Assembly (NCBI GenBank): GCA_965233585.1
Contig: CBDDTI010000228.1
Coordinates: 1 to 17,857, forward strand
Direction of reading: 5' to 3'
Source of the DNA: a bacterium
GTDB taxonomy: Bacteria > SAR324 > NAC60-12
DNA length: 17,857 nucleotides
Shown here: in pieces, positions 16,357 to 16,830 of the stretch
Layout of the letters: each line of letters opens with the position of its first letter
Position numbering within the stretch: position 1 is the stretch's first letter
The notes under the pieces: model-generated
What the model saw: only the letters and a program-made list of their open reading frames with translations
Told to the model about the DNA's origin: nothing
Databases searched by the model: none
Translations under genes and position numbers: made by a program

Positions 16357-16830
16357 TTAAACTGTGCTGCCTCCCCGCTGCCCCGGGTTTGGAGATGGTA
16401 GTAGAGAGCTTGTCTGTGCTGGCCTTCGCGGAAGGCCTGGAGCATGTGGAGGCAGCTCCTCGAAGCGGCGGGCTGCCTCGGCGATTTCAGCCTGTCTCAG
16501 GATGCGTTCCAGGCGCATCATCTGTCCATGGTCAGGTGCAAAATGGTGAGGGAATGGCAATGGTGGTTGATGCCATGTCTGTGGATGAGGAGGGAGCGGC
16601 TGCGGTGGTGCGGACACTGGGTGGTGTTGGTCTCTGCTTTGTGGCCGTCTCTTCAGGCGGTGCAACTTTCTTTTTAGCCTGAACAGGTAGATTAACAAGG
16701 CAAATATTATGATGAGGGCCACAGTTCCTCCGAAAGCCATGTGGTCGAACCTTATCTCCATGACGTCCTGATGTGATTCCGTGTGGACCACATCAGCTTG
16801 CTGAACAGGGGTGCTGTTGTCGGACCCCAT
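16357..16830 (-). CDS. 157-aa single-pass membrane protein with N-myristoylation motif (FAST/sORF2-like architecture) between pol and the 3' LTR
   Basis: AAAATGG start 9 nt after the pol stop; MGSDNS; TM FGGTVALIIIFALLIYLF; RLKRKLHRLKRR; Pro/His-rich tail. Confidence 0.78.
   Translation of the reverse strand: MGSDNSTPVQQADVVHTESHQDVMEIRFDHMAFGGTVALIIIFALLIYLFRLKRKLHRLKRRPQSRDQHHPVSAPPQPLPPHPQTWHQPPLPFPHHFAPDHGQMMRLERILRQAEIAEAARRFEELPPHAPGLPRRPAQTSSLLPSPNPGQRGGSTV

Follow-up and report, generated by a model that had tools for sequence, protein, structure and literature searches.

What is encoded by a small open reading frame (ORF) that lies in the envelope (env) position of a Gypsy-type long terminal repeat (LTR) retroelement? 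The question is raised by contig CBDDTI010000228.1 (assembly GCA_965233585.1), which was analysed over all of its 17,857 nucleotides, hereafter the window. The small ORF, at 16357..16830 on the minus strand, directly follows the integrase end of pol and has homologues whose conservation follows the domain structure of the protein. It is very probably a genuine gene for a retroelement membrane protein that is under selection. Beyond this, we give a probability of about one half to the reading that it is an accessory gene of the element and encodes a small bitopic membrane protein similar to sORF2 of Drosophila retrotransposons and to the FAST fusogens of reoviruses. A role in cell-to-cell transmission, which is suggested by analogy with these proteins, has about an even chance.

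A first-pass annotation of this DNA had proposed an intact ORF between pol and the polypurine tract, and both its coordinates and its position hold. In the ORF listing of the window, 16357..16830 is exactly an ORF of 157 codons on the minus strand, from the ATG at 16830-16828 to the TAA at 16359-16357. Upstream of it lies the C-terminal part of pol (16840-17856, minus strand, 338 codons, open at the window end), which matches the Pfam families Integrase_H2C2 (E 4e-15) and rve (E 2e-10). The pol ORF ends with TAG at 16842-16840, and the ATG of the small ORF follows 9 nt further on in the same frame, after the spacer codons C-H-K. In the start context, ACAAAATGG, position -3 is A and position +4 is G, as read here by consensus rules. 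A CAG with a short pyrimidine run before it is found ~24 nt upstream of the ATG. Downstream, 120 nt of untranslated sequence (16237..16356, minus strand) separate the stop codon from GGGAGGGGGG at 16236-16227 (minus strand), directly after which comes TGTTAC. Together they form the canonical pair of polypurine tract and LTR start; the combined string is unique in the window and absent from all of 200 shuffles. The putative 3' LTR (16226-16145, ~82 bp, TGTT...AACA) contains a run resembling a TATA box and an initiator-like TCAGT. Because a repeat search found no second LTR copy in 13500-17857, its boundary was inferred from one copy, by the terminal TGTT/AACA and the switch to a different coding-like sequence downstream. 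Since the integrase lies upstream and the polypurine tract with TGTTAC downstream, all on the same strand, the order is integrase, small ORF, polypurine tract and LTR start, and the small ORF is in the env position. Rfam and tRNA scans of the window gave nothing. The features of the element are as follows, where residue numbers refer to the small protein (P0001) and TM stands for transmembrane.

16840..17856, minus strand: C-terminal 338 codons of pol, integrase H2C2 and catalytic core (Pfam), stop TAG at 16842-16840
16831..16839, minus strand: spacer of 9 nt, codons C-H-K, same frame as pol (sequence)
16357..16830, minus strand: small ORF P0001, 157 codons plus TAA, candidate sORF2/FAST-like membrane protein (homologues, family profile)
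16738..16830, minus strand: residues 1-31, predicted ectodomain with an acidic/His membrane-proximal segment that includes RFDH (family alignment)
16830-16813, minus strand: residues 1-6, MGSDNS, N-myristoylation motif (sequence)
16681..16737, minus strand: residues 32-50, predicted TM helix, Tyr48 near its cytoplasmic end (Kyte-Doolittle 2.55; AlphaFold2)
16633..16680, minus strand: residues 51-66, juxtamembrane polybasic stretch, 9 K/R of 16 (composition)
16528..16632, minus strand: residues 67-101, Pro-rich variable linker, 12 Pro of 35 (composition; least conserved segment)
16453..16527, minus strand: residues 102-126, predicted amphipathic helix ending in RFxE[L/I] (hydrophobic moment; AlphaFold2)
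16360..16452, minus strand: residues 127-157, Pro-rich tail, PxRP and LPSP motifs, C-terminal S-T-V (family motifs)
16237..16356, minus strand: untranslated stretch of 120 nt (sequence)
16227..16236, minus strand: polypurine tract GGGAGGGGGG (unique in the window; 0/200 shuffles)
16145..16226, minus strand: putative 3' LTR of ~82 bp, end point inferred (TGTT...AACA; one copy)

Is the small ORF a gene? A word-based search revealed three full-length relatives of 154-158 amino acids (aa), with 94, 79 and 61% identity. An exhaustive phmmer search of 1.84 billion representatives found 47 matches at E<=1e-3, 22 at E<=1e-10 and 1 at E<=1e-30. Most of the phmmer relatives listed are 145-177 aa long, and the homologues reach down to ~30% identity. 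A hidden Markov model (HMM) of the family, run against the six-frame translation of the window, gave a single match, the small ORF itself (E 1e-46). We aligned the window protein with two close relatives and the 47 phmmer matches. In this alignment of 50 sequences, the aligned Met is the start in 37, and MGxxx[S/T] is present at the aligned start in 40. A TM peak with a Kyte-Doolittle value of at least 1.8 is found in 47, beginning at residue 26-37 in 45 of these 47; at least five K/R occur within the 16 residues after it in 42, and the ectodomain is net negative in 47. Loss of the ORF, of Gly2 or of the TM helix in relatives had been named in the first-pass annotation as the outcome that would speak against a FAST-like protein. 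What we observed is that the motif (40/50), the TM helix (47/50) and the polybasic stretch (42/50) of this architecture are conserved.

Conservation is not uniform along the protein. For column statistics and fold prediction we used a subset of 29 sequences, from which 13 sequences with N-terminal extensions, five fragments and three without an MG start had been dropped; this selection favours Gly2, so that 40/50 is the fair figure for the motif. In the subset, M1 and S6 are invariant, and G2, S3, V15, H20, E25, R27, D29, H30 and G34 are conserved at 90% or more. The mean majority fraction across the family is 0.71 in the ectodomain, 0.52 in the TM helix and 0.31-0.39 in the polybasic stretch, linker, helix and tail. 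Tyr or Trp near the cytoplasmic end of the TM helix is found in 26/29. RFxE[LIV] and PxRP are each found in 19/29, and a C-terminal [ST]x[VIL] in only 6/29, the clade of the window copy included. The comparison with P0004 shows the same kind of mosaic over a shorter distance: the two proteins share 31/33 residues in the ectodomain, 24/25 in the helix and 30/31 in the tail, and 19/35 in the Pro-rich linker, with 22/51 differences in residues 51-101 versus 6/106 elsewhere. Such mosaic conservation is expected for a protein under selection. In four relatives (P0007, P0019, P0030 and P0041, and partly in P0014), an in-frame N-terminal extension of ~42-48 aa that begins with M-C precedes the conserved part. 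In these four, the extension contains a second hydrophobic helix before the conserved Met-Gly, and it may represent either a signal-anchored isoform made as an alternative or another small membrane ORF. If this helix acts as a signal anchor, the same N-terminal segment would be outside, which agrees with the topology predicted below.

What kind of protein is it? The first-pass description of its parts was borne out piece by piece. The protein begins with MGSDNS, an MGxxxS motif, in an ectodomain of ~31 aa. Over windows of 19 residues, hydropathy is highest at residues 32-50 (Kyte-Doolittle 2.55), and this is the sole strong peak. The first 33 residues are polar, with a net charge of -5 and no hydrophobic signal-like stretch, as stated for a protein without a signal peptide. 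Residues 51-66 contain nine K/R and no acidic residue, and they are followed by 12 Pro in residues 67-101. Thus, by the positive-inside rule, with -5 before the TM helix and 9 K/R of 16 after it, an N-out/C-in topology is predicted, which leaves a cytoplasmic part of 107 aa (residues 51-157) that ends in GGSTV. AlphaFold2, run with the 29-sequence alignment, predicted a helix at residues 25-60 (predicted local distance difference test, pLDDT, 80-96 over 31-60) and, with modest confidence (pLDDT ~60-68), a second helix at 103-121, in line with the C-terminal helix proposed earlier; the remainder is unstructured in the model. The hydrophobic moment of residues 102-126, calculated for a helix, reaches 0.76. 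In the ectodomain, a strand-like alternation was seen around E-I-R-F-D-H-M-A, with a moment of 0.75. The tail motifs may be adaptor-binding sites.

Which known proteins does it resemble? The Drosophila MDG1 precedent cited in the first-pass annotation exists: FAST-like, envelope-free spread was first proposed in 2025 for insect elements (Voichek et al., bioRxiv 10.1101/2025.03.14.642691). For 412 and its relatives, the preprint showed that sORF2 is found at the plasma membrane together with capsids, that it is present in actin-rich protrusions which invade the oocyte, and that these envelope-less elements reach the germline from the soma. The screen used there asked for a sense ORF of 60-210 aa in a Gypsy element, one TM helix (TMHMM and Phobius) with the N-terminus outside and the C-terminus inside, an ectodomain of 10-50 aa that contains MGxxxS/T, and fewer than 150 aa on the cytoplasmic side (bioRxiv 10.1101/2025.03.14.642691). 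Its secondary features are a polybasic juxtamembrane region, amphipathic motifs on both sides of the membrane and a Tyr just after the TM helix. The small ORF shows every one of the primary features, with 157 aa, one TM helix, MGSDNS, an ectodomain of ~31 aa and a cytoplasmic part of 107 aa, where we counted TM helices by hydropathy and AlphaFold2 and assigned topology by charge asymmetry, and where MGxxxS/T is kept in 40/50. Of the secondary features, Tyr48, a polybasic region and an amphipathic helix on the cytoplasmic side are present, whereas in the ectodomain no alpha-helical amphipathic motif was found (moment at most 0.29), but only the strand-like alternation.

The likeness to sORF2 of the MDG1 group (412, Mdg1, Stalker, Tabor, Blood), as described in the preprint, includes the carrier, an envelope-less Gypsy element with the ORF in sense orientation, and the protein, with MGxxxS/T, an ectodomain of ~30 aa, one TM helix, the N-out/C-in charge asymmetry, a polybasic stretch, an aromatic residue near the end of the TM helix and a cytoplasmic amphipathic helix. 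In the AlphaFold2 model, a long helix runs through the TM and polybasic part and a second helix follows, as the preprint describes for 412 sORF2. There are also differences. The published insect set consists of 105 ORFs of 63-107 aa, mostly upstream of gag, whereas our protein has 157 aa and a long Pro-rich tail with RFxE[L/I] and PxRP/LPSP. The MDG1 sORF2 lies upstream of gag, whereas the small ORF described here lies after pol. It is to be noted that some lepidopteran sORF2-like ORFs are also downstream of pol (7/22 consensus sequences in the preprint), and so the env position claimed in the first-pass annotation stands, with less novelty than was suggested there. No sequence homology to the insect sORF2 set as given in the preprint was detected: RFDH, MGSGNS and MGSDNS have zero occurrences in its two spreadsheets in a motif search. 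The one likeness is a similar E-x-R-[FY]-H before the TM helix in three noctuid entries of its tables, which is a lead on distant homology. The insect sORF2 proteins barely align with each other, and FAST families are without mutual sequence similarity (bioRxiv 10.1101/2025.03.14.642691). In the present family, by contrast, the ectodomain and tail keep their sequence conservation in dozens of diverged lineages, and the protein has roughly twice the length. Conservation of sORF2 in drosophilids is treated in a later paper (PNAS 2026, PMC13486581). Full-text searches of the literature gave no other report of such ORFs.

A separate observation concerns the C-terminus. In a hand count of PMC11952523 table S1, the last residue is Val or Ile in 53 of 77 insect sORF2-like rows (105 in all), as in -DKI or -xxV, and the window protein ends in -STV (16360-16368, minus strand). 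These ends look like a PDZ-ligand-type C-terminal signal. PDZ is unmentioned in the main text of the preprint.

Reovirus FAST proteins share with the small protein a size within 80-200 aa, the lack of a signal peptide, a small ectodomain, predicted acylation, one TM helix, a polybasic region and proline-rich and amphipathic cytoplasmic elements, and they too belong to a non-enveloped agent. Among the FAST proteins, p14 and p15 are myristoylated and p10 is palmitoylated. In 20/29 members of our family, though not in the window copy, the TM helix has a Cys close to its cytoplasmic end, which recalls p10. In contrast to reovirus FAST proteins, the carrier here is an LTR retroelement and not a double-stranded RNA virus, the ectodomain has no obvious hydrophobic patch, and there is no significant match in sequence or fold. 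Pfam gave sub-threshold TM-type matches only, and no envelope family, for the small protein and its family; a profile search of PDB sequences had no match with E below 0.1; and a Foldseek comparison with viral models returned 0 matches at E<=1e-3, which carries little weight for a low-confidence model that is mostly one helix. In the ESM Atlas the best score for the small protein was 0.88, to generic single-pass fungal proteins, and this gave no lead. A profile scan of prokaryotic contigs with a four-sequence alignment returned one 13-residue match in a Myxococcales metagenome-assembled genome, which we rejected as a chance match in an unrelated soluble protein without a TM helix. Because the carrier differs and a link in sequence or fold is lacking, we do not file the small protein as a member of the reovirus FAST family, but only as one that would act in a similar way. 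We place it in the sORF2/FAST-like class in its operational sense, as part of a new sequence family whose conservation is unusually good.

Two other proposed FAST-like proteins of non-enveloped agents, smORF2 of nackednaviruses and ORF2 of avian megriviruses, resemble the small protein in architecture when compared by description, and megrivirus ORF2 also lies downstream of the main ORF; they differ in length (67-115 aa) and in their unrelated genomes. The Env proteins of errantiviruses and retroviruses share with it the position between pol and the 3' LTR. In contrast to Env, the small protein lacks a signal peptide as well as a large glycosylated ectodomain, matches no envelope domain of Pfam, and is about one third to one quarter of the size of Env.

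To which lineage does the element belong? The pol ORF has 148 longer relatives at E<=1e-20, of which the best are 51-63% identical. The closest sister pols are mostly single gag-pol ORFs of ~1400-1425 aa on contigs of ~5 kb, with a zinc knuckle, protease, reverse transcriptase (RT), RNase H and integrase. A short LTR here and the single gag-pol ORF of the sisters on ~5 kb resemble the Mag lineage, in which Culex elements measure 4.5-5.3 kb with LTRs of 119-304 bp; this likeness is one of traits, as RT lies outside the window. The nearest ESM Atlas clusters of the integrase are 'K02A2.6-like', with Arthropoda as the commonest phylum, which is a lead on the host only. Eighteen sister pols (P0052-P0069) end 5-16 residues past a shared RNRRF, mostly with C-A-[T/A/V], and this end aligns with the C-H-K spacer of the window copy. 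Thus, the pol stop probably abuts the start of the small ORF in relatives too. This suggests a conserved stop/start junction and possibly translational coupling; it would fit a spliced subgenomic RNA as well as termination-reinitiation.

Could the small ORF be something else? That it arose by chance in GC-rich, stop-poor sequence is suggested by the local GC content of 56%, compared with 39% for the window, and by ORFs of 77-109 codons on the opposite strand. These antisense ORFs, which overlap the small ORF at 16353-16682 on the plus strand, probably result from the scarcity of stop codons in the local composition. Of 2000 shuffles of the segment between the pol stop and the polypurine tract (613 nt), four produced an ORF of 157 aa or longer, and the homologues, down to ~30% identity with domain-structured conservation, refute this explanation; we regard its probability as negligible and chance as ruled out by the conserved homologues. 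The segment might also be a C-terminal extension of integrase that is made by read-through of the TAG, or the decayed end of pol. The frame is shared with pol, with one stop and three codons between, and the sister pols run past RNRRF into a C-A-[T/A/V] that lines up with C-H-K. This explanation is scarcely credible to us. Met1-Gly2 and Ser6 are conserved as a start would be, the domain is found in none of 120 related pols, and a search for longer forms gave no fused protein, which is weak evidence. Read-through is unlikely because of the conserved Met-Gly start together with the absence of the domain from these 120 pols. We also know of no TM helix on an integrase, which counts against this explanation. 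A third possibility, that the small ORF is the remnant of a former env whose original role was lost, namely the TM subunit and tail of a larger glycoprotein, has the env position and the order of TM helix and cytoplasmic tail on its side. It is very improbable, as the start is conserved (37/50 at the aligned Met), most of the listed relatives have 145-177 aa, the myristoylation motif is conserved, no member has a signal peptide or a large ectodomain, and neither a Pfam envelope match nor any longer relative was found.

The alternative with most in its favour is that the small ORF encodes a retroelement membrane protein that is not a fusogen, either a Vpu- or viroporin-like factor or a membrane adaptor; Vpu is the comparison for a small accessory membrane protein. 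Such a protein might act in particle assembly, trafficking or release, in modification of host surface proteins, or in tethering of capsids via its long tail. Its small size, one TM helix, basic juxtamembrane stretch and cytoplasmic helix fit this role equally well, and the tail of ~107 aa with RFxE[LIV] in 19/29 and PxRP in 19/29 resembles an adaptor-binding region. It is also in its favour that heterologous fusion was not demonstrated even for sORF2, according to the preprint. On the other hand, the short ectodomain with the myristoylation motif is the best conserved part (0.71, versus 0.52 for the TM helix and 0.31-0.39 for the rest), which argues for a function at the outer face of the membrane, a hallmark of the FAST type. 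Furthermore, the env position holds no envelope gene that such a factor could assist. We therefore hold a non-fusogenic role to be unlikely, and prefer the accessory gene for an sORF2/FAST-like membrane protein.

Several results weigh against the sORF2/FAST-like assignment itself. The family HMM has 0 matches in 120 related pol proteins, and a word-based search for longer forms with the small protein scored 0 of 736 candidates and gave no fused forms, which is weak evidence. Linkage of the small ORF to pol was shown for the window copy, one of the 50 aligned proteins, the small ORF shares the frame of pol and follows its single TAG, and the 5' part of the element is beyond the window, so that this copy may be incomplete. 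Ten of the 50 sequences are without MGxxx[S/T] (P0008, P0014, P0036, P0037, P0038, P0040, P0042, P0047, P0048 and P0050). P0008, P0014, P0036 and P0038, which are among five short ones of 65-128 aa, are probably truncated, and P0048 was aligned from inside a longer predicted protein and has no start of its own. The AlphaFold2 model has low overall confidence (pLDDT 64.8, predicted template modelling score 0.30), and an alpha-helical amphipathic motif was not found in the ectodomain (moment at most 0.29). The Pfam family Orthoreo_P10 matched 13/29 members weakly (best E 0.0012), with 18.4 bits as the top score seen (cut-off 21.4) and solely in the TM and juxtamembrane part. We rejected it as homology, because it is sub-threshold and unrelated single-pass families match equally weakly, and read it as shared composition. 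For sORF2 as well, fusion was not reproduced in heterologous cells and its requirement was not genetically testable (bioRxiv 10.1101/2025.03.14.642691). On the whole, the first-pass interpretation is partly supported.

How might an sORF2/FAST-like protein of this kind work? The small protein would be made from the element's transcript, by a spliced subgenomic RNA or by re-initiation 9 nt past the pol stop. Its Gly2 would be N-myristoylated, and the single TM helix would be inserted so that the acidic N-terminus of ~31 aa faces outwards and the polybasic stretch faces the cytoplasm. The cytoplasmic tail, with the amphipathic helix, RFxE[L/I], PxRP/LPSP and, in this clade, -STV, would recruit host cortical or adaptor proteins and perhaps capsids of the element. 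Clusters of the protein would then appose the membrane of a neighbouring cell and open a local fusion pore or channel, through which capsids could cross to the neighbour, and ultimately to a germ cell, without an envelope. The topology, acylation and helices in this scheme are predicted; fusion or transfer is drawn from Drosophila MDG1 sORF2 and reovirus FAST proteins by analogy.

We also consider a wider reading, tentatively and as less likely than not. In it, the small ORF would belong to an undescribed family of at least 47 clusters at 50% identity, whose members would be myristoylated FAST-like proteins in the env position, with the ATG at or next to the pol stop, in a Gypsy lineage that is distinct from MDG1 and may occur outside insects. 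The conserved ectodomain, with its His and Asp residues including RFDH, would indicate a specific partner outside the cell or a trigger that responds to pH or metal, and not a generic perturbation of membranes. The tail motifs RFxE[L/I], PxRP/LPSP and -STV would be handles that recruit the host cortical machinery.

The rest of the window contains other features outside the element. Past the putative LTR, at 15048-16140 on the minus strand, there is a frameshifted coding-like stretch with Cys/His knuckle-like motifs and a protease-like segment. A reading of this stretch as a BEL/Pao gag-protease region, into which the Gypsy element would then be inserted, was not confirmed, since Pfam gave only DUF3678 (E 0.007). 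Further on, 14671-14865 and 14888-15082 are tandem units of 195 nt with 99% identity (gap figure of 217 nt in the repeat search), flanked by inverted repeats of 22-35 nt in the region 14566-15082. A 233-codon ORF at 12781-13482 (minus strand) has a hydrophobic N-terminus followed by a long, mucin-like body rich in Thr and Ser, with no Pfam match. Weak C2H2 zinc-finger matches occur at 2-1219 and 8404-9141 (minus strand), one of which runs off the window start. A run of ORFs at 1621-3192 and 5485-8360 on the minus strand resembles a Polinton/Maverick-like DNA element, with a P-loop ATPase at 1621-2352 (Pox_A32 and FtsK matches sub-threshold) and an Endonuclease_7 match at 7089-8360 (E 9e-6). 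A B-family DNA polymerase, read by eye at 5485-5886 and 2380-3192, was not confirmed by Pfam or PDB. Between these polymerase-like pieces lie a 398-codon ORF at 3372-4568 (plus strand), with imperfect repeats rich in Ser, Gly, Ala and Trp and no Pfam match, and a long ORF opposite to it at 3392-4405.

What would the small ORF mean for retroelement biology? If the wider family reading is true, envelope-free cell-to-cell spread would be an old and widespread strategy of retroelements, and the family would be conserved enough for structure-function work, unlike the insect sORF2s. If the small protein has the same mode of action as sORF2, the strategy extends beyond the MDG1 group, and the family offers conserved residues to mutate and motifs for seeking host partners. 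In that case, "env-less" elements may need rethinking as potentially infectious within tissues.

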